Assembly (NCBI GenBank): GCA_951406725.2 | Contig: OX597831.1 | Span: 36,270,001-36,334,000, forward strand | Length of the DNA: 64,000 bases | Source: Octopus vulgaris | Taxonomy: Eukaryota | Direction of reading: 5' to 3' | Part shown: piece after piece, positions 6,561 through 57,530 of the stretch | How the letters are laid out: each line of letters opens with the position of its first letter | How positions within the stretch are numbered: position 1 is the stretch's first letter | Notes under the pieces: model-generated | Databases searched by the model: none | What the model saw: the letters and a program-made list of their open reading frames with translations, nothing else | What the model was told of the DNA's origin: nothing | Program-made: the position numbers and the translations under genes

Positions 6561-6592
6561 TATATATATATATATATTTATTATATAGAAGG

Positions 6593-6643
6593 AGCTTCTA
6601 CAGGACTAGTACTGTTTCATTCAAGAGAAATCTTCAGGAAGCT
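6593..6643 (-). ncRNA. Type-I hammerhead ribozyme (left arm copy)
   Basis: Reverse complement of 10921-10971. Confidence 0.75.
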
Positions 6644-6865
6644 ATTTAACAAGAATTGTATTAGCATTTATACATTTAGGCAGGTTTAAAGGAGTGGTGG
6701 TGGGGGACTTTTTTGGGGGTAGGCATAGCGCAAAATATCATACTTGGGGGAGTGGTCAAGGAGTCAGTGGTAAGTTAGATGAAAGAATAGATAAATAAAA
6801 AAAAAAATAAATAAAAAAATAAAAAAGTAAAAAAAAATAAATAAATAAATAAAAATATATATATA

Positions 6866-10645: not shown

Positions 10646-10920
10646 TATATATATTTTTTTATATATATATATATATATATTTTTATATATATATATTTTT
10701 TTATTTATTTATTTTTTTATTTTTTTTTATTTTTTTTTTTTTATTTTTTTATTTTTTTATTTTTTTATTTATCTATTCTTTCATCTAACTTACCACTGAC
10801 TCCTTGACCACTCCCCCAAGTATGATATTTTGCGCTATGCCTACCCCCAAAAAAAGTCCCCCACCACCACTCCTTTAAACCTGCCTAAATGTATAAATGC
10901 TAATACAATTCTTGTTAATT

Positions 10921-10971
10921 AGCTTCCTGAAGATTTCTCTTGAATGAAACAGTACTAGTCCTGTAGAAGCT
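10921..10971 (+). ncRNA. Type-I hammerhead ribozyme
   Basis: AGCTTC-CTGAAGA-tTTC tctt GAAt-GAAA-CAGtACTAGTcCTG-TA-GAAGCT: 6 bp stem I, CUGANGA and GAAA boxes, near-palindromic stem III, GUA site (cut after 10965). Stem II is weak. Confidence 0.75.
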
Positions 10972-11055
10972 CCTTCTATATAATAAATTAATTTTACTCT
11001 GCTATGTATTGAGTACCTTACTTACTGTGGTTAACCCCGAATCAACCCGGGACCT

Positions 11056-11105
<50 letters not shown>

Positions 11106-11164
11106 AAAAAATGAAGTTCGAAAATGCTGCTGTATTATACAATTTTTAATTTTTATATATACAT

Positions 11165-11205
11165 TATAACATGTTTCAGTTCCTGAAATGAACCTTATCA
11201 AAAAA
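11165..11205 (-). ncRNA. Decayed hammerhead motif in Penelope 3' region
   Basis: Minus strand TTGATAA-GGTTC atttcag GAACT-GAAA-CATG-TT; stem I is poor. Confidence 0.45.
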
Positions 11206-11580
11206 AGTTATATATAAAAAAAGACAGCTCATGCCGTCAAACACAAGAAATTCATTTATAATACACAACGGAGTCAGACATCTTAGAGTTCATGTATAGT
11301 TGATATATAGTTCATGTATAGTTGATATATAGTTTGAAGTATATGTTCAAAGTGTTCGATGCAGTGGCCCACGGTGGCGATACGTATTCAATACAAAAAA
11401 CAGATCAAAGTGGTGGAAAGCGGTCAATACAGAAGATTGATGTTTCCGAAAGAGCGAGGAATTCATTTTTACCTTAAGCAATTGTGATGACCCATGGTGG
11501 ATGTTCGCTGGGTGGATCTAGTGAATTTTGTGAAGTGCTCGGTTTTATAATGCCTGTTAGGTGGTCAATCCAGCGTAGCG

Positions 11581-11915
11581 TGACGTCGTCAACGTTTTGA
11601 CCAATCGTTTCGTTAGGTGGCTTTATTCAAGCAGAACGGGACGTCATCATCATTTTGACCAATCGCTGCATTATAACTGCCTCTTGTTTGTTTCCTGTTT
11701 TGACCAGTCGCTTCGTTAGTGAAGCAGAACGGGACGTCATCCAGATTCTGCCCAATCACGACTTATAGCTACATTAGATCTGCCCCCTGTCTGTACTTGT
11801 TAGGTGACTAGTCAAGCAGAAAAGGACGTCATCAATATTCTGACTAATGACTGTCCCCTGTTTGTATCCTGTCCATTCTAGCAGAGCTAGACGTCATCAA
11901 CTTGTTGACCAATCA
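11581..11915 (+). promoter_or_regulatory. Five GACGTC(A)...CCAATC modules (CRE-like plus CCAAT box) with fixed spacing
   Basis: GACGTC at 11582, 11640, 11733, 11825 and 11890; CCAAT (CTAAT in copy 4) starts exactly 19 nt later each time. Confidence 0.65.
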
Positions 11916-12082
11916 GAATCGGGTCTGACCCTTAGCTGTATCGTATGTATCAGGGTCAGATTTGCACGAAAGAATTTTTTTCCTTTTTTACTAAGGCATA
12001 TTTCCGTCAGAGCGAGTGTCTGTTTAAAGTAGCGGCCGTGGTGGAATTTTGCTTCTCCTTTTCGGAGGACTTATCTTTTGTT

Positions 12083-12659
12083 TTAGTATTCCTGGCCCAG
12101 GGTGTTTAAACTTGGTCTAAATTTTTTTATGAAATATGGTTCTTTATTTTGGCGTTGTGTGAAGGTTGCGTTGTCACTGAATTTATAGAGCGGGTTAGTT
12201 GTAAATTTCGGATTTACATTTCCAGCACATCTATCTGTGTGTCCGCTGACCGGTATTTTGCGGTAATCAGGGTTTCTAATTTGTGATTTATGCACCGCCA
12301 TCCTGTTACGTAAGCTATTTTTTGTATGGCCTATATACTGCCTATTGCAGCCTGCGCATGTTATGACGTAAATTAAGTTTTCTGATGCGCAGGTGAAGTT
12401 TGTTCTAATGGTGAACTGGTGGCCTTGTTCCAGTATAAATTCTGATCCTTCTTTCAAGATGACACAGATTCCGCAGTTGGGCCTTCCACTTTTTCTAACT
12501 GCTGGTTTTGTGGTTGATGTTGAGTGCAGTGTAGCTTGGGAAAATCCTTTTCAAGGATTTTGGTTGCCGTTTACTTTTAATGATGGTGTGTGTTTCGAGG
12601 ATCCGGTTCATCTTTGGGTCTCCCTTTAGTAGGGTTGTGCTTTGTAGTATGGTGTTGAA

Positions 12660-12660
<1 letters not shown>
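12083..12660 (-). pseudogene. Penelope-like GIY-YIG endonuclease domain fragment
   Basis: NLIYVITCAGCNRQYIGHT..LRNRMAVH..E.YFIKKFRPSLN, preceded by the Zn-linker-like GRPNCGIC; frameshifted upstream and no RT present. Confidence 0.9.
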
Positions 12661-12704
<44 letters not shown>

Positions 12705-12711
<7 letters not shown>

Positions 12712-13265
12712 TAAATTAGAGACAAAACCACTATAATGCAAATCAAACAAAGAAAGACTTAAGCCAATACATAAAATAATTTAGAGTTTATTATAAGTAA
12801 ATTTTTATTTAGATTATATAGATTATTTATATCTTAAAAATATTGATTATATATATATATATATATATTATATTAAATTAGAGACAAAACCACTATAATG
12901 CAAATCAAACAAAGAAAGACTTAAGCCAATACATAAAATAATTTAGAGTTTATTATAAGTAAATTTTTATTTAGATTATATAGATTATTTATATCTTAAA
13001 AATATTGATTATATTTTAGGTTTTGAAACCACCTGAAGAATGTCTCATAGAAGTCCTGACACGAAACGATCGTAGTGGTTATTTTAATTAAATTTAATTT
13101 ATATAAATTATTTTATGTATTGGCTTAAGTCTTTCTTTGTTTGATTTGCATTATAGTGGTTTTGTCTCTAATTTAATATAATATAATATTTTACTATAAA
13201 ATTGGATTCAATCCTAAAGCTGATTTTTCCCTGTAAATTTGAATTTATTCCCTAATATTTATTAT

Positions 13266-13268
<3 letters not shown>
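12705..13268 (+). mobile_element. Inverted/tandem pLTR-like element carrying a hammerhead
   Basis: 161 bp-period direct duplication (about 12705-12851 and 12866-13012); its first ~85 bp recur inverted at about 13103-13187; (TA)n flanks. Confidence 0.8.
13027..13080 (+). ncRNA. Type-I hammerhead ribozyme
   Basis: AACCAC-CTGAAGA-aTGTC...GACAc-GAAA-CGATCG-TA-GTGGTT: 6 bp stem I, palindromic stem III, GUA site (cut after 13074); A-C mismatch at the base of stem II. Confidence 0.8.
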
Positions 13269-13308
<40 letters not shown>

Positions 13309-31554: not shown

Positions 31555-31796
31555 TGTAACTAATTTGTACTTTTGTACATGTATTTTTATTTTTGCAGTT
31601 TTATTGTTTGTCTATGCCAGAAAAAAGGCTTTTTCGTTCGTCCTCTTGTGTGTTTGTTTTTGTACATGTATCTCGTATTGTAACTAATTGTATTTTTTGT
31701 ACATGTATTTTTATTTTTGCTGTTTTATTGTTCGTCTATGCCAGAAAAAAGGCTTTTTCGTTCGTCCTCTTGTGTGTTTGTTTTTGTACATGTATT
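31555..31796. repeat. ~125 bp tandem duplication at the start of a pLTR-like T-rich element (to about 32095)
   Basis: TGTAACTAATT...GTCTATGCCAGAAAAAAGGCTTTTTCGTTCGTCCTCTTGTGTG...GTACATGTAT occurs twice. Confidence 0.85.
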
Positions 31797-35535: not shown

Positions 35536-36253
35536 CATAGGAAAATGGGCAACACGAGGGCTTCCATAAGTGATGGAATGAAAAGTATGGTCAACTTCGG
35601 ATCTTTTCGTACCTAGTCCGAATGCTTATAACAAAGCAGACTCCATTAAAATCAGTGAGTGGTCAGGTGACAAAGTAAATGTGTATGCCATCTAAGAACA
35701 TAAAACGATTCACTAATTTCCACATAATTGTTGTTGTTCAAAAATTCTCTCACAAAACACTGGTCGAATCGAGGTTGCGGAATACAAGATGTTATGCAAT
35801 TGGATCGATCCCAAAATCACAGAATTACGAAGCGAACTTATTACACTGGACAACAAAAATGCTACTACTGGGGAGAAAGCAGGTGTTTTAGACTAAATCG
35901 AGTTTGCTGATTTCGAATCCGCACTCAGAATTATTCTAGCATGACAGGATTTTGAGTTATGTGCTTGCGCAAAATTATAAGTATACTTTTGGCTAGATAT
36001 CGGCCGTATTATAAAATTTGCTAAAATGAAAGGGGTTTTAATTCAAAATTAAAGAAATATCAGCAATAAAACAAACGATGAGAAAGTTCATTATTTAGTT
36101 TAGCAACAGATGGCGCTGACATATTGTGTGCAATGCCAAATACGTTGGTTTGTTCTTGGTACCTCTGTGTCGTTTGCGCTGCCGTCATGCGTGGAATGTG
36201 TATCTCTCGCTCTGTGGTGATTACTGTTTTAACTGTATTCATTGTGTTAGATC

Positions 36254-37350
36254 ATGAATAGGAGAGGCTGTGTAAATCACCCAGACAACATTTGTTATGT
36301 CTGTGGAAAATTTGTTCCACGTGACCAGCGGAGGAACATTGCCACCAAATTAAAAATTGCCTATAAATATTATTTCAGGTGTAAAGTTGGGGATTAAGAC
36401 AAGAGGTGGGCACGTCATATGTGCTGCACCATGTGTTACCTAGGCTTACACAGCGGCTGAATGGAAAACGGAAGGGAATGCCTTTTGTTGTAGCAGTGGT
36501 ATGGCGTGGATGTCTCTGATTGTTACTTTTGCATGACTAATATCAGTGGTTTCTCTAAGAAGACCAAAGCAAAATTCGTGTATGCAGATTGTAAGTCGAC
36601 TCTAAAACCGATCCTACATGACTTCGAGGACCCTGTCCCAGTTTCCCTCTCACATGCTTCACTTGAAAATCTTGACATGTCAGACGATGAAACCCCTAAT
36701 TCTCCTATCAACGAAGAGTATGTAGTATATTCTCAGAAAAATGAGCCAGGTTAGTTTAATAAGATTTGAACGAATTAGTAAGAGATCTAGCATTGTCAAA
36801 GGAGAGGGCAAAATTTTTTGGATCCAAATTACAACAACGGAATCTCCTACAGCAAGGTACGAAAATTTCCATTTTCCGTTCTCGACATCAGGGTTTATCT
36901 GTCTTTTGCAAGCAAGAAACTAATGCCTGTTTCTGTACTGACGTTAATGCACTCATGCAAAAACTAGGACACGTGCATGTGGCTAACGAATGGAGATTGT
37001 TTATAGATTCGAGTAAGGTTAGCTTCAAAGCTGTGTTGTCATATAATGATAAAGAAAAACCTTCCATCCCTGTGGGTCATGTTGTCGGTATGGAAGAAAC
37101 TTATGAATCGATGGAACTCTTTCTGAAAGGAGTTAATTACTCAGCTCACTAGTGAAATAATTGTGGTGATTTAAAGGTGATTTCCCTACTCCTTGGACTG
37201 CAGCTGGGATATACCAAAAATATGCGCTTCTTGTGTGTGTGGAACAGCCGCGACGACAGCAATCATTACACTGTAAAAGACTGGCCTAAAAGTGATGAGT
37301 GCATAGTTGGTCGGTACGATGTGCAGCATATGCTACTGGTAGACCAGTAA
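36254..37350 (+). pseudogene. Decayed DNA-transposon transposase (CYVCG..DKRWARH..DCYFC..WRLFIDSS..CGDLK family; tentatively Sola3-like)
   Basis: MNRRGCVNHPDNICYVCG; YFRCKVGD*DKRWARHMCC; SDCYFC; NELVRDLALSKE; EWRLFIDSSKVSFKAVL; CGDLKVISLLLGLQLGYTK; multiple stops and frameshifts, 3' truncated. The element probably starts near 35890. Confidence 0.8.
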
Positions 37351-37609
37351 AAGAGCTGAGCATATAAAAAACAAAGTCATTATATCTTAACATAAATATA
37401 CTATGTATCATATTATAATATTATTTGCCTTGAACATCAATTTATTATATTACAATACTAATATGCTATTATAATAATTATTTACCTTGAACATAACTAT
37501 TCCTGATTCTAATATAGTATTAATATACTACTAGCTGGACCGTGAAAAATTCACTGTAAACAAAAAAATGTAAGCACCTGTAAACTGGTGCCATGAAAAA
37601 TGTTTGTAT

Positions 37610-37784: not shown

Positions 37785-38724
37785 ACCCCCTTCCTCCTCC
37801 ACCTCGGATCTTTCCAGGAAGTCCCTAACTTCCTCCTCGAACTTTTCTAGGAAGAGATTCCTCCCCTTCCTCTACCTCCTCCTCTTACACCCCATCTTCG
37901 GAACATTCCAGGAAGTCCTTCCTTCCAATCCTCCCTTTCCAACACCACCTCAGAACATTCCAGGAAGTCCCTACCCACTCCTCGGACTTTTCCGGGAAGT
38001 TCCTACCATCTCATCGGAACATTTCAAGAAGTATTTCCTCACCCTTCTTCCTTTCCTCCCTTCCACAGAACTTTCTAGGAAGTCGCTACACTCCTCCGCG
38101 GACTTTTCCAGGAAGTCATTACTCCTCCTCCCCTTCATCTTCCTCGGAACTTACCATGAATTCCTTCCTACCCCTCCTCCCCTTCCTCGGAACTTTCCAG
38201 AAAGTCCCTACACACATCTTCGGAACTTTCCAAGAAGTCCTTCTTCCCCACGCATAAGAAATTTAGGTAGAAGCTAGATATATGTCCGACCTTGTGCAGA
38301 GGTCCCCTCGGAACTTTCCTTGAAGTCCATCTCCTCCTCTCCTCCCATCCCCATCCCCTCCACCCCTTTCTCCCTACTCGGAACTTTCCAGGAAGTCCTT
38401 CCTCCTTCTCTCCTTCCTCCCATACTCAGAACTTTCCTGGAAGTCCTTCCTTTCCCTCTTCCCATCTTACCTCCCTTTCCCTTCCTCCCCTCCTCGGTAC
38501 TTTCCAGGAAGTGTTTCTTTCCCGCCCTCCTCCCCGTCCCCTTATTCCTCTTCTCCTCCTCGGAACTCTATAAGAAATCCCTTCACCTCCTCTGACTTTC
38601 CCAGGAAGTCCTCTCATTCCTCCCCTCTTCCCCTTCTGCCAATCCTCGGAACTTTCCAGGAACTCCCAGGAAATCCCTATCCCCTCTTCGGAACTTTTCA
38701 GGAAGTCCTTCCTTCTCCTCCCAT
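37785..38724. repeat. Array of about 20 conserved 22-mers (CTCGGAACTTTCCAGGAAGTCC) with variable C/T-rich spacers
   Basis: Cores at about 37803, 37836, 37897, 37949, 37981, 38013, 38064, 38097, 38143, 38186, 38219, 38307, 38377, 38425, 38493, 38559, 38591, 38645 and 38687. Confidence 0.9.
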
Positions 38725-38725
38725 T

Positions 38726-39421
38726 GGATCTACTTCTAGCATAAGGGTTGTCCACACAGTGGTCATCTCTCTCATATGTATGTAATACGATTTACTGAAC
38801 CTTCAGATTTTAATATGCTAGACCACTGGTTTTAAATTGATGTTAATCAAATTAATATCCAATTTTTCACCCTCAATTTAAATTTAAATTAATAGTTCTC
38901 TAACCGGCAAACGCTACTGTAGTGAATTATTTCCTGCAGTCTTATTTCCGGGAATATAGTGCGCCGAAAGGAGGACTTTTGAAAAATAACCACAAGTGTA
39001 ATAGGTAGAACTAGATATATGTCCGACCTTGTGCAGAGGTCCCGTGTATAGTTCTGCAATTTATATTTGTATTGACGATCATACTGAAGATCTACGGACA
39101 AATTGCGTAAGTAAAATTACGTAATCTGTTGATAGTGAAACATGTTTGTGATTAATCTTTATTTTTGTTACTTTTCTTTTGTCTTGCTCGCTTACGTTCT
39201 GCTGTTTGCTAAATTTTCTTGAGAACATTTCTTAGTGGTAAGACCATATCGGATCTACTTCTAGCATAAAGGTTGTCCATATAGTGGTCATCCTTCTCAT
39301 ATGTATGTAATACAATTTATTGAAACTTCAGATTTTAATATGCTAGACCACTGGTTTTAAATTGATGTTAATTTAATTAATTATATAATTAATGATTATC
39401 CAATTTTCACCCACATTTTAA

Positions 39422-39426
<5 letters not shown>
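38726..39426 (+). mobile_element. 1.3 copies of a 525 bp HHR-bearing unit (retrozyme or pLTR-like)
   Basis: 38726-38886 repeats at 39251-39426; homologous to 56088-57170. Confidence 0.8.
39077..39153 (+). ncRNA. Type-I hammerhead with long stem II
   Basis: GATCATA-CTGAAGA-tCTA..TTGCGTAA..TTACGTAA..TAGt-GAAA-CATG-TT-TGTGATT: 7 bp stem I and palindromic stem III. Confidence 0.7.
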
Positions 39427-41769: not shown

Positions 41770-41995
41770 TAATCGTCCTTTCTTAAGTAGATATATAGTA
41801 AAAAGTATGTCGGTCTTGACCATCCGCCTTATGTTTCTAGATATCTTACATCTTTTCTTTTTTTGTTTTTTGTACTTGTAGGATCTAAAGGAAGGGACAA
41901 TGTCCATTGCCTCCACAGGCTCTCTGACACCAGAAACCACTTTTGTGATGCATGTTACAATCCTCTGTATAACTTTTTCCAAGACGGAAGGGTTG
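41770..41995 (-). pseudogene. Highly decayed CR1/L2-like RT C-terminal fragment
   Basis: LEKVIQRIVTCITKVVSGVRE...MDIVPSFR resembles LEKVQRRATKLVPGLR...LDLPSL. Confidence 0.4.
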
Positions 41996-43569
41996 TGTTT
42001 TAAGGGTAAATTCCTACTATTTCCACCAGTTCTAGTATACAGACTCTCGTATTATATTCTGATACTTACAGAGAGTCCTATACAGACTCTCGTGATATTT
42101 TCTCCTGGGCAGTCCTTTGTATTACTAAAGCAAACCTCAATAATCTGTGGGCTTAATTGAATAAAGACAACTATGAAGATTCGATCCTATCGCTGTAATA
42201 TTTATAATGACATTCGACTTTTAAACGATCCGTTTTTATGTTTACAGCATCAGGCCGATATAATTTCCTATGGGTGAATTTATTAATAACCACATGTTAG
42301 TGAGAACGGACATTGCTGACTGTTTATTTTCATGCGGTGTACATAGAGAAAGAGTCTGGACGAGCTCAGTATATTTCTAGTTAAACACAGAGTAAGCAGT
42401 GCTGCCATTGCATACAGTTGGGAGATGTTCCTACATATTTACTGACGAGCCAGCGAGAGAAACTATGTGTAGCTGCTCACTTGAGAGAAACAGCAGTCGA
42501 ATATACCCTACAACTCAGTATTTTGGTACAGGGCATATTTCTGTGTGTTCGTCACACTCTCATCATATATGTTTAGCGAATGTGAAAATATATTCTCCAG
42601 ACAAACCTCGCAACATCTCTAATACTGTCCAACCCTTGGTTATCGAGGCCACCCGATTGTAAATTACTGCTCTGCTGTTTGAAAGAGAAGTGGACACATT
42701 CATGGGTAATGTAGTTCTGGATTAACACAAAGACGTGATGGCCATAACAGAAATACATCTCTTCGTAGCTCTAGCCTGGGGCTAATCAATAACATCCTAT
42801 TGAGTACAAAGCGGACTGAATCATTTGAAAAATAATTATTTGGGCCCACGAATATAAAAACAGCCAAACGGGACCACCTTTCAGCTGACTGTTAATAACT
42901 CACGGGACTGAGTCCATTCATTAATACATTTTTTCCCTCTCATAATTGAGCAACCTTTTAAAGGAGAAGTGTATCTACTATAAGCTAGATTGGATCTTTC
43001 GAGTAACAAATGTTTGGCCAACGGATATAAACGGAGTGCCAGTAGTAAGGTGTAAACTGACCACCTTCCAGCTGACTGCTAGTTACCCAATCGAATCAAC
43101 CAAGTACACAGTTGGCTCCTGTTATACTGAGTTAACTTTTACGGCATCAGTATTTGTGTTGGTGTTTAGAAAGCAGCACGGGTGTAGCAACACGGGTAAT
43201 CTGACACCCGATTCAATATTTGCTCATTGATTATACAAAAAAAACGAAATATTTTATTGCAAAGTGATCTCCAGCTTGTCAGCTGTTATGCTATTTTAAC
43301 AAAAATCCATTAACTCTGCTTCTTTTCTCGTGCAATCAGAAATATGGAGAAGAATTTTACAGCTAACTCACTTCCCAAAAGCATGCATATATATCCTAAC
43401 AAATTTCCGATATGAAATTCAGATATATCGAATATTTTTCTTTAATTTCCATTTTCATGACGTATAGTATCTGACTTCAACTTTTTTTTTTATTTGTTTT
43501 GTTAATGATAATTCATTTCAATGATTTTGAGTAACAACATTGTGAAATTAAATTCTGTTTGGGCTTGCT

Positions 43570-48190: not shown

Positions 48191-48636
<446 letters not shown>

Positions 48637-48690
48637 ATCGTTCCACCACTGCTTATATCTCTCTGAGATATTTAGAAATTTAATATTCCT

Positions 48691-52567: not shown

Positions 52568-53738
52568 GTGCATATGTAGATATAGATGCACGCATACATG
52601 CATGAATATATACATTCATACACCCATAAACACTAAATACAATGAACATACAAAGCGAGACATGGCACAGTCATAGATAGAATATACACGTTCAAAGCGA
52701 TATCAATCAACAACATTTTATAAGTTCTTTTGATTTGTGGTTTCACAGATTGCAGCAGTTAAAAAACTTCTTTTTTTTTTTTTAATTTATTTATCGGAAA
52801 TAATTAAATTAGTAGGAAATATATGTAGTCTCTTGTCTGGCAGCGATAGAACCCAATCGATTAGAGCCAAATTAGAATACACTGCTTTACCCAACAACAA
52901 CAACAGCAACAACTTTTGTCTAAATCTGTTTTACACTATCGAATCTCACAATTAAATTTCACATTAACGTTGATACGATATTCTTGCAAGGAATTTTTAA
53001 GGTTTTCTGATCTCATTGTTTGCCACTCTCTTCAATGCATCAGCTTAAAGTTTTATTTCCTATAACTTTATTAGTGCTTTCTATCCGTCTATCTCGTTTC
53101 TATCAGGACACTCAATTATTTCCCCACTTTTATTTTTTTACGTTTTGTTTCCTGATATTATTTATGTTTTTTTCTTTTCTTGTTTTATTCTTTGTTTTAG
53201 TTCTAATCAAATGGTAACTTTATTCTCTTCTATTCTTCACAGGTTTCCTATTAAATTCCATCTATCTTTATCTCACTTTCTGTTTTCTACAAATTCAATA
53301 AAGTACTAATGCAAAATTCCGGTTTGCAAAAGTCTTTGATTCTTAGCCTGCAGGAATCGCCTTTCTATAACCGTTAAAACGCAAACTTAAAAGACTAAAT
53401 TTAAATGCACGCATCATAATCACCATGGTTCAAATTTGTATACTACAGATATATTTTTAAAGATATCAATTTTCTCCTAGGTTATCATCTTTCAAATGTC
53501 AAGCCGTGTTATCTCTAAAGCTTTCATTTCAGAATAGATTCCTATGGACAACACTATGGAAACACCAAATACTTCGAAATCAACTATTAAATCCAATTTT
53601 CTTTCATCCTTTTTCCTCTGCTTCCTTTCTCTACTCATAATTGCAGCATGAAGATATATAAAGAATATAAAGTAACTAAATATTGATTAGTACCATGGAC
53701 ACAACGCTAGACATTTTAGGAGAGAGAACAGTCACATA

Positions 53739-53974
53739 CAGGGTGGCCCAAAAGTTGGTTTACAGTTATCAAGTAGGAACTTTTCTTTTAAAACATTTTA
53801 TTACATTTAAATTTCTATCGTACAAACGGAAAAGTGAGCTCGACAAAATTAACTAAATTATACATAGAATAATGGCTTCATACATTTTTTTTTTATAATT
53901 AAGATCTAAACTGTTGATATATGAATGTGAAAGAGATAGTTGAATAACTGTGAACCTACTTTTGGGCCACCCTG
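53739..53974. mobile_element. Tc1/mariner MITE with TA TSD, nested in an old SINE
   Basis: TA-CAGGGTGGCCCAAAAGTTGGTTTACAGTTAT ... ATAACTGTGAACCTACTTTTGGGCCACCCTG-TA. Confidence 0.9.
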
Positions 53975-54411
53975 TATATCGACTTCAAAACTTACCCGGT
54001 ATTTGTTTCAAAAAGCAGAAAGATAAAAGGCAAAACTGAACTCAGAGTGATTTGAATGCTGGAAAGAAAAGTCGCAAATGAATGCTATAATGCCCTCAAA
54101 ATAACCAAACATTCTTTAACTGTTACTGCCTATATTTGTCTACTCTCGGTGAATACAGGCGGCTACTGTAGTGTTCATAAAAACCTACTACATCCAGGAC
54201 TATACGTTAAAATCCTATTCATATCTCCTATAATTCTTTCATTCCGAGGGGGTGGCTGCTAACAACCCCGCCGAAACCGCAAACACGGTCTGCGTTCAAC
54301 GTTTTATCTCTTTTAACAAGAAAATAGATATAACAAACAATGACAAAAAACTTTCTAGCAATCCCTGCAGATTGTTTGAAGAATACGGTGATGAAGATAA
54401 TAAATGCTGGT

Positions 54412-55737: not shown

Positions 55738-56362
55738 ACACACGCACACACGCACACACACACAGATACACACACACACAGATATATATGGAAAATGAAA
55801 GACGGAAGATGGAATATGCGAGAATTTATTATTAAATACGACAATTGTTTCAACACATCTAGCATCGATTCCTTATTGGTGGGGCACTCAACAACTGGTT
55901 CAGAAGCATTCGGCGGTGCAGATGTATCTTTTCAGGTGATAAATAGATACAACTCGCTAAAATGACTGTTCCGCAAGGTAACTTTCCGTTTTGCAGAAAG
56001 AAAAGCAGTCAAATACATAACGATCACTGTGAAAGTGCCCGAGCTTGACCAGTAAACTATCGTGTAAACCGTTCGTTTTATATATATGCTAGGCTACTGG
56101 TTTTAAATTGACTTTAATTAAATTAATTAAATTGATATTCAATTTATCTCCCCATTATTTAAATTTTAAAATCATTATGTTCTCTAATTGGCAACATTAA
56201 CTGCAGTAAATTATCTACTACAGAACTGTTTCCGGAATTTAGCGCGCCAGAGCTTTGACATTTGAAAGTAACCCCATTGTAATCGGTAGAACTAAGCAAT
56301 GTCTATTTTTATATGGACAACTTGTGTTTGTTTAGTTTTTCAAATTATATTGATTTTGGAAC

Positions 56363-56438
56363 GATCGTACTGACGAGTCTGCGGACGAAGGGTTACGTAA
56401 GTAATTTATTCGGTAATAGACGAAATCGGTATACGATT
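56363..56438 (+). ncRNA. Type-I hammerhead ribozyme with canonical core
   Basis: GATCGTA-CTGACGA-GTCTG...TAGAC-GAAA-TCGG-TA-TACGATT: 7 bp stem I, G-C closed stem II, GUA site (cut after 56431). Confidence 0.85.
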
Positions 56439-56841
56439 AATTCTTGAATTTTATATAATTTTCATCTGTCTTGCCCGCGTATGTTCTGGTGTTCGCTGAA
56501 TTTTCTCTGGAGAACATTTTCTCTTTGTAGTTAGATCGTATTTGATCTTCTTCTGGCGTATTGGTTATCCACCTAGTGGTTTATCCCTAGATATACACAT
56601 GTATGTATATAGGTGTTAAATTAATGGTATTATTAAATTAATATCAATTTTTCACCCTCATTTATAAATTTATAAATTTAATTATGCGGCAGTAAATATT
56701 TTATTTGATGCAGCATACGTTTCCAATGAGTCTTAGCATGCTTTTCGCGGGGAATTTGAGGCATAACTAAAAATGCAATTGGTTAAACCGCACGTGTATT
56801 TGACGCTCGTGTTGGTCTAATAAATTGTATTTAAGACAAAC

Positions 56842-56914
56842 CTCTTCTGATGATTTATAGATGTCTATGTAAGTAAAATTGCATTTACATTAGTAATGAA
56901 ACAATTGTTCAGGG
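56842..56914 (+). ncRNA. Partly decayed type-I hammerhead
   Basis: CTCTt-CTGATGA-tTTA...TAAt-GAAA-CAATTG-TT-cAGGG; palindromic stem III, weak stems I and II. Confidence 0.6.
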
Positions 56915-57164
56915 TCAATCTATTTATTCGTTATATTTCACTTTCCTTCCGTTAAATGTAATGTTATTTCTAGTTGGAAACATCGTTTCTGTGGCTATAC
57001 TATCGGAGCTATTTTTAGCACTAGAGCTATCCACATAGTGGTAAATCTCTAATAATTTATATATAAATTTGTATTTTCTCCCTAGTTTTTTTGTGCTAAG
57101 CCACTAGGTGTTAAGTTAATGGTACTATTAAATTAATATCAATTTTTCACCCTCATTTATAAAT

Positions 57165-57246
<82 letters not shown>

Positions 57247-57530
57247 TGTGTGTGTGTGTGTGTGTATGATGTGCAGTTACATATAAAAGCAAACAGTAAA
57301 CTGAAGGATCACTGAAGATATGTCAGTAGAATAAAATTGTTATATAATTTGAAAAAGGAAACGGTTGACACTTGCTTCGAAGTTTCCACCCCGCAACCTT
57401 CATTGGATTCCTCGATGAAAGTGATGCAGCCGAATCTTCAAAGTAACTCTGAACCTTTATTTTTCCCTTATGAAAATTGTGGGTTTACCTAATCACGGTT
57501 CTTTCATTGTCTTCGTAGTATTTTCTCTGT

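Follow-up and report, generated by a model that had tools for sequence, protein, structure and literature searches.

Non-LTR retrozymes of metazoans are described as non-coding, low-GC repeats of 150–450 bp that lie head to tail, carry a type I hammerhead in each unit and give a self-paired RNA, with circles documented in coral, mussel and axolotl (PMC7229834). According to the same source, the axolotl motif HHR_Amex2 has a U.U pair at the base of stem II, and the U.U-based axolotl hammerhead shows weak cleavage on its own that improves in the dimer, its repeat forming circles.

In 2026, Li, Clavereau and Pollet presented animal retrozymes as derivatives of the pLTRs of Penelope-like elements (PLEs), with consensus lengths of 51–972 bp, common monomeric derivatives and co-occurrence with Penelope-type GIY-YIG elements (10.64898/2026.07.22.740005). 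Their rule for an “active retrozyme” asks for a tandem called by TRF and complete hammerheads in two consecutive units; only one of nine Xenopus dimers was cleaved, and the sample, in the available part of the source, includes no mollusc.

PLE hammerheads combine an enlarged stem II of 7–8 bp with a palindromic stem III, which points to dimer-dependent cleavage (PMC4209133), and PLE copies end at a fixed site downstream of the hammerhead, lie in AT-rich or (TA)n targets and carry a terminal extension (PMC4209133, PMC8557442, PMC11167929), the tail measuring 30–40 bp (PMC8557442). A Poseidon reverse transcriptase (RT) initiates internally, downstream of the hammerhead, at AT-rich nicks; uncut RNA is its main substrate in vitro, insertion did not depend on cleavage, and none of the reads stopped at the cut (PMC11167929). 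Furthermore, PLEs insert into or beside earlier copies (PMC6765202).

In literature listings and abstracts, we found no report of a hammerhead retrozyme in a cephalopod; the family described here may be catalogued in Repbase, Dfam or paper supplements. In its available part, the repeat annotation of Octopus vulgaris counts 31 Penelope-like families with recent activity and mentions neither ribozymes nor retrozymes (PMC13282606), and the available parts of PMC5680766 and PMC10886601 hold nothing on cephalopods. Here, we analyze a window of 64,000 nucleotides from Octopus vulgaris (assembly GCA_951406725.2, contig OX597831.1, positions 36,270,001 to 36,334,000, forward strand), a stretch of AT-rich animal DNA dense in microsatellites, which contains three members (A1, A2 and B) of one hammerhead-bearing repeat family. 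In our view, this family is probably a non-LTR retrozyme copied by Penelope-like elements into TA-rich DNA, the A1/A2 locus being a likely inactive relic.

Anatomy of the A1/A2 locus and of locus B

The segment at 56083–57170 consists of two joined members of one repeat family, 68% alike, and forms no clean tandem array (Table 1). An earlier note on this DNA, made from the letters alone, had proposed non-coding units joined at about 500-bp spacing. The spacing is confirmed by homologous unit starts at 56098, 56610 and 57105 (512 and 495 apart), as are the near-identity of 56611–56672 and 57106–57169 and the lack of coding capacity, the longest stop-to-stop frame in the A1/A2 stretch being 59 aa and that in locus B 75 aa, with circular ATG ORFs of at most 49 aa in the units. 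Its description of a head-to-tail tandem holds for the homologous starts and not for the rest, since TRF calls no tandem repeat in the pair, either with the settings of Li et al. or with relaxed ones, and the join is out of register. Neither did TRF find a homogeneous dimer or array elsewhere within the window.

Table 1. Features of the repeat family, in window positions.
Feature	Position	Strand	Details
Unit A1	56083..56604	+	522 bp of a ~551-bp period, circularly permuted; family's 3' end missing; delimited by nhmmer and contig joints
Structured domain of A1	56175..56520	+	Predicted long rod closing a hairpin arm and the hammerhead; z -5.7
Hammerhead 1, type I, intact-looking	56363..56438	+	7-bp stem I from 56363; core 56370; predicted cut after 56431 (GUA)
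A1/A2 join, out of register	56605..56609	+	5 TA-rich bases where ~45 nt of the A1 period are expected
Unit A2	56610..57104	+	One full 495-bp period; 68% like A1, 70% like unit B
Structured domain of A2	56676..56985	+	Homologous to 56175–56520; z -6.3
Hammerhead 2, type I, impaired	56842..56914	+	Core 56847; predicted cut after 56909 (GUU); missed by the strict scan
A2 terminal redundancy, 66 bp	57105..57170	+	64/66 identical to 56610–56675; ends at the family's fixed 3' end
(TA)n(TG)n microsatellite	57171..57267		Directly 3' of A2
Locus B	38726..39426	+	One 525-bp period followed by a redundancy of ~165 bp (88% across 180 aligned positions); 3' end as in A2, then (TA)n
Hammerhead 3 (locus B), type I	39077..39153	+	7-bp stem I; predicted cut after 39146 (GUU)
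B-type unit fragment, 43 bp	38264..38306	+	Inside a C-rich repeat; 42/43 columns identical to 39001–39043

The homology of A1 and A2 lies well above chance (68% over 365 aligned positions; score 28.5 versus a shuffle maximum of 13). However, A1 is 77% identical to locus B, so the two neighbors are not each other's nearest relatives, and each has its own close paralogs among the contigs described below. Judged by these identities, A1 and A2 belong to different subfamilies and A2 appears to be a separate unit-plus-redundancy piece, which bears out the caveat of the earlier note that its second unit might be a separate insertion beside an older relative. Local tandem duplication followed by decay, that is, the birth of a satellite, or a mis-assembly would fit two co-oriented units nearly in register, and none of the contigs listed spans the whole stretch; but with A1 nearer to a distant locus than to its neighbor, separate close paralogs for each unit and a 66-bp redundancy still 97% identical, we regard such an origin as very unlikely.

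The full A1 period was obtained from contig joints that run from 56604 back to 56083 (“goes back 522”) with 29–30 letters between, seen in three contigs of one DNA run and one of another. These 29–30 extra nt after 56604 in related copies set the A1 period at ~551 bp and leave the A1/A2 join short by ~45 nt. A “skips 504” contig joint was set aside, as it reflects the similarity of the A1 and A2 heads. No continuation of A1 was found 3' of A2, a result compatible with a template jump and with nested insertion. The (TA)n(TG)n tract is the likely insertion target of A2, and no target-site duplication is discernible beside it.

A2 and B share their last motif, in which an AT-only palindrome comes after a C-rich loop and (TA)n follows immediately. 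This end lies 261 nt (A2) and 280 nt (B) downstream of the predicted cut, while the 5' ends of the two copies differ. This shared 3' end on (TA)n is present in two of the three copies, A1 being without it; internally, the 3'-end motif continues into the same unit start in all three. The end-to-start join is homologous across copies only 68–77% alike, which is not what a coding element truncated at random from its 5' end would produce, and a 3'-end motif that runs into the same unit start with no ORF points to a template with a period of ~500–550 nt and no ORF. Copies are longer than one unit, amounting to 1.13 units in A2 and ~1.3 in B. By analogy with described PLEs, a fixed 3' end on a (TA)n target, together with copies that exceed one unit, is read as a Penelope footprint. 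The 43-bp B-type fragment hints that B may formerly have had a longer upstream copy. It is enclosed by a degenerate C-rich repeat (37790–38725, ~17-bp unit) that adjoins locus B upstream.

Hammerhead motifs

A strict type I scan of the window returned 5 motifs, compared with a mean of 0.1 in 50 shuffles (maximum 1), and passed the hammerheads of A1 and B; A2 retains the core with a broken stem I. Thus, of the two hammerheads that the earlier note had placed at 56363 and 56842, the first passes and the second is imperfect: a U.C mismatch next to the cut, which is why it fails the strict scan, is followed by only 4 pairs, one of them U.G. All three copies present a palindromic or near-palindromic stem III, a stem II region of 44–46 nt and an NUH cleavage site. 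Hammerhead 1 has a stem II region of 45 nt whose basal pair is G-C and a near-palindromic stem III at 56425–56430 (fold z -2.5), which becomes a perfect palindrome with the C found at 56426 in 89–92% of DNA contig depth. Hammerhead 2 (palindromic stem III at 56901–56908; fold z -0.6) and hammerhead 3 (also palindromic; fold z -2.3) have U.U at the stem II base, a feature that A2 and B have in common together with the GUU site, G10.1-C11.1 being kept in A1 only.

Rfam gave no match at the gathering threshold, only Hammerhead_3 at E 1.5, and minimum-energy folds bury part of the hammerhead core in all three copies. Scanning for the hammerhead pattern gave 32 loci in metagenome contigs, 6 in viral ones and 13 in prokaryote ones; none of the 51 was similar to the units by blastn at E 0.01, so these pattern matches are ascribed to chance. 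The 3'-end motif had 0 matches in the metagenome contigs.

The predicted cuts of hammerheads 1 and 2 are 478 nt apart, as the earlier note had calculated. The distance stands; an RNA product of that length is not supported, since it would be an A1/A2 chimera short of the family period by ~45 nt and would need the damaged hammerhead 2. Two co-oriented cores at this spacing and a 478-nt stretch that folds better than shuffles (z -3.4) are what a working dimeric retrozyme releasing a circularizing RNA would offer, but the stem I mismatch lies right beside the cut, the differing stem III palindromes of A1 and A2 make a mixed dimeric fold unlikely, and A1 carries many letters absent from nearly all paralogs. 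We therefore consider a functional dimer at this locus highly improbable. The A1/A2 locus, which falls outside the active-retrozyme rule of Li et al., is likely dead, in other words likely inert junk.

Predicted RNA fold

The fold signal lies in a hammerhead domain of 310–346 nt that begins at the unit start (z -5.7 to -6.3). Compared with dinucleotide shuffles, the predicted circular folds of A1, A2 and B reach z -7.0, -5.8 and -4.4, respectively, with reverse complements near shuffle level; of 24 control tiles folded out of 44 candidates, two fell below -4, both containing inverted repeats. The units have a GC content of 30–34%, and 64–66% of the predicted monomer is paired. In a three-way consensus, 18 of 94 pairs changed on both sides, versus 6.7 in shuffles and 2–4 when slid, a count that leans high because it comes from only three sequences, the same three from which the structure was derived. 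Independently folded units had 64, 33 and 41 pairs in common, the 33 of A1/B being no better than the reverse-complement control (35) or the neutral maximum (35). As modeled, the hammerhead-domain fold is strand-specific and conserved, with compensatory changes.

Placing the 14 listed majority letters into A1 improved its fold by 7.2 kcal/mol, which none of 100 random sets of the same type matched, a sign that A1 has decayed from a family with better pairing. The same replacement at 9 sites of A2 was not significant, with 14 of 100 random sets as good. Linear units are predicted to fold as stably as circular ones (-114.0 vs -110.8; -130.0 vs -123.9), and the structure therefore neither requires nor proves a circle.

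Family copies in sequencing contigs

Contigs from four of the 24 sequencing runs listed were aligned to 55800–57172 at 80% likeness, and loose ends and variants were assessed among the 24 of 897 and the 40 of 188 listed. Two DNA runs gave 2982 and 3395 contigs on this interval, part of which come from an unrelated repeat at 55800–56075; most are less than 95% alike, and all 30 of 30 bins are covered. Three copies in the window and a high presence in related DNA runs make this a dispersed multi-copy family, and a rough comparison of summed depth, which is not itself a copy number, with single-contig depths of ~30–55 suggests hundreds of copies or more. The repeat at 55800–56075, a separate high-copy family, lies directly upstream of A1, and opposite-strand contig joints suggest that it is a MITE with terminal inverted repeats.

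Paralog contigs bridge the end-to-start join. One of them spans 56616–56906 with 33 other letters and stops 3 nt before cut 2; because contigs cannot show ends, this stop was not counted as evidence. A variant at 56173 occurs in 24 and 20 DNA contigs, up to 52 and 80 nt from the contig end. Arrays are beyond the reach of such short contigs. Two further runs, taken to be RNA by guess, also contain family contigs, and some of these extend across the predicted cuts; as DNA, uncut transcript and ligated circle look alike in contigs, they are neutral on expression.

These data bear on whether the units are simply what a coding Penelope-like family left behind, namely long stretches of pLTR plus tail in partial tandems cut short at the 5' end, without an ORF-less life cycle of their own. 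The fixed 3' end, the (TA)n target, the palindromic stem III and the large stem II are all PLE traits (PMC4209133, PMC8557442), several further PLE-type remnants with hammerheads occur in the window, and the summed depth, which peaks just upstream of the 3' end, fits 5' truncation as it would fit sequence conservation. Nonetheless, the three copies and the paralog contigs pass from the 3' motif into the unit start without an ORF, only 2% of aligned DNA contigs run on unlike the stretch (a weak measure, the contigs being short), and the redundancies of 66 and ~165 bp exceed the 30–40-bp PLE tail (PMC8557442). With 24 of 897 loose ends listed, an ORF-bearing form of the family may still exist. 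Altogether, we judge the origin as mere remnants unlikely and favor the retrozyme.

Proposed mechanism and the RNA template

The family likely works like a non-LTR retrozyme, every feature open to a sequence-level check having been found except a complete hammerhead in every unit. A longer-than-unit transcript would be cut by the hammerheads, probably acting as dimers through the palindromic stem III, and a host ligase would close the cut-to-cut monomers of 495, 525 or ~551 nt into circles. A Penelope-type RT/GIY-YIG protein would then nick (TA)n and start reverse transcription inside the RNA, at a fixed site 260–280 nt downstream of the cut, copying past one unit to leave a monomer plus terminal redundancy. 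A1 and A2 may have been joined by an RT jump between two templates, or A2 may have landed at the broken end of an older A1.

Since reverse transcription of an uncut tandem transcript would give copies of the same form, the circle is the least certain step, with circular and uncut tandem RNA about evenly balanced as the template. One form of the retrozyme reading, differing only in this RNA step and with its likelihood counted inside that of the whole, holds that the units are non-autonomous Penelope passengers copied from linear, uncut read-through RNA, the hammerhead being a weak or protein-gated relic and no circle accumulating. It draws on the linear fold being at least as stable as the circular one, on GUU with a U.U stem II base in A2 and B, on the partly buried cores and on the preference of the Poseidon RT for uncut RNA in vitro (PMC11167929). 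Set against it are the retention of core, palindrome and long stem II across 23–32% divergence, the cleavage and circles obtained with a U.U-based hammerhead in the axolotl (PMC7229834), and the expectation that dispersed 1.1–1.3-mers would be unable to seed longer-than-unit copies without circles or master arrays. Such a linear route is a serious possibility, though overall less likely than not.

More speculative, and doubtful as a whole, is the idea that octopus-type genomes harbor old, diversified viroid-like circular RNAs of ~500–550 nt, in which a domain of ~330 nt (rod, hairpin arm and 45-nt stem II) has been maintained by selection in subfamilies 23–32% diverged, with the Penelope RT starting at one fixed site and jumping between subfamilies to produce mixed tandems. 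If true, RT jumping between subfamilies would be a route to new chimeric circles.

Comparison with described elements

The units resemble the metazoan non-LTR retrozymes of PMC7229834 in being non-coding and low in GC, with one type I hammerhead per unit, head-to-tail unit starts and a predicted self-paired RNA, and A2 and B have the U.U stem II base of HHR_Amex2. Unlike those repeats, they measure 495–551 bp, contain a stem II region of 44–46 nt and occur in the window as monomer-plus-redundancy and as a mixed pair with no homogeneous arrays, their cleavage and circles being predictions. The retrozyme-like family proposed in the earlier note thus stands at the family level (ORF-less, high-copy, with a type I hammerhead, a conserved fold and copies of more than one unit) and not for a product of the A1/A2 locus, and its large units are not exceptional, their size lying inside the 51–972 bp range of Li et al. 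Monomer-based copies and the presence of a Penelope-type GIY-YIG element in the window also agree with that survey, in contrast to the parent pLTR, none of which was identified for the three units.

As for PLE pLTRs (PMC4209133, PMC8557442, PMC11167929), likeness extends to the palindromic stem III, the enlarged stem II, the fixed 3' end downstream of the hammerhead, the AT-rich or (TA)n target and the terminal extension. The units differ from them in having no ORF, a redundancy longer than the tail, a stem II far longer than 7–8 bp and G10.1-C11.1 retained in A1 only. The plant LTR retrozyme, with a type III hammerhead in LTRs, a PBS, a PPT and a 4-bp TSD, is unlike the units, which have type I topology and no discernible TSD.

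A1, A2 and B belong to a real, structured family of hammerhead-bearing retroelements whose kind is known in many animals and which is probably new for the cephalopod lineage, a probable extension of hammerhead retrozymes to a cephalopod. The anatomy of the units connects two separate bodies of work, one on the fixed internal site at which Penelope reverse transcription begins and one that models retrozymes as copied from circular templates. With its 3' end fixed, its 5' ends varying beyond one unit and its fold conserved among diverged subfamilies, the family lends itself naturally to testing whether circles or uncut tandem RNAs serve Penelope enzymes as templates, and which RNA structure these enzymes recognize.

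Other elements in the window

A 5'-truncated Penelope-type element lies between TA tracts at 11102–12662 on the minus strand. Its C-terminal GIY-YIG fragment (12086–12550; PF01541, E 9e-7; 49% like an RT-GIY-YIG protein), whose cysteine linker we take to be Neptune-like, implies that such enzymes exist or existed in this genome. The ~1-kb 3' region holds repeated promoter-like CCAAT and TGACGT motifs, and near the 3' end is a hammerhead-like motif, a U3-A8 core variant with a stem III palindrome identical to the one in locus B. As a parent of the unit, this element was rejected for want of DNA similarity. A tblastn search of the window with P0001 matched only at 12104–12662; no RT/GIY-YIG ORF flanks the three copies, and no autonomous element with the unit as its pLTR was found in the window.

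The strict scan also marked several of the other hammerhead-bearing PLE-type remnants. Identical type I hammerheads with a U.U stem II base and a long stem III sit at 10915–10978 (plus strand) and 6590–6645 (minus strand), in near-identical segments of opposite orientation. The element at 12686–13270 (plus strand), which abuts the GIY-YIG element and is flanked by TA, has a hammerhead (core 13033) between inverted repeats and contains a perfect 162-bp tandem duplication. An inverted-repeat element at 48306–48640 bears a hammerhead-like motif (core 48436) at its center, and a decayed minimal hammerhead lies within an inverted repeat at 1390–1500, in one of the control tiles. At 31555–31795, a 124-bp unit in 1.9 copies follows a TA tract, with no hammerhead by the strict scan.

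Elsewhere, a decayed ORF at 36230–37360 (plus strand), without a Pfam match over 36763–37149, presumably resembles a widespread DNA-transposon protein, and the terminal inverted repeats of the element at 53735–53985, seen in a control tile, are assumed to be of Tc1/mariner type. The SINE-like repeats of the window look octopus-type to us and, together with the microsatellite load, fit a cephalopod host. A possible exon lies at 41850–42000 (plus strand), where a polypyrimidine tract and AG precede open frames.
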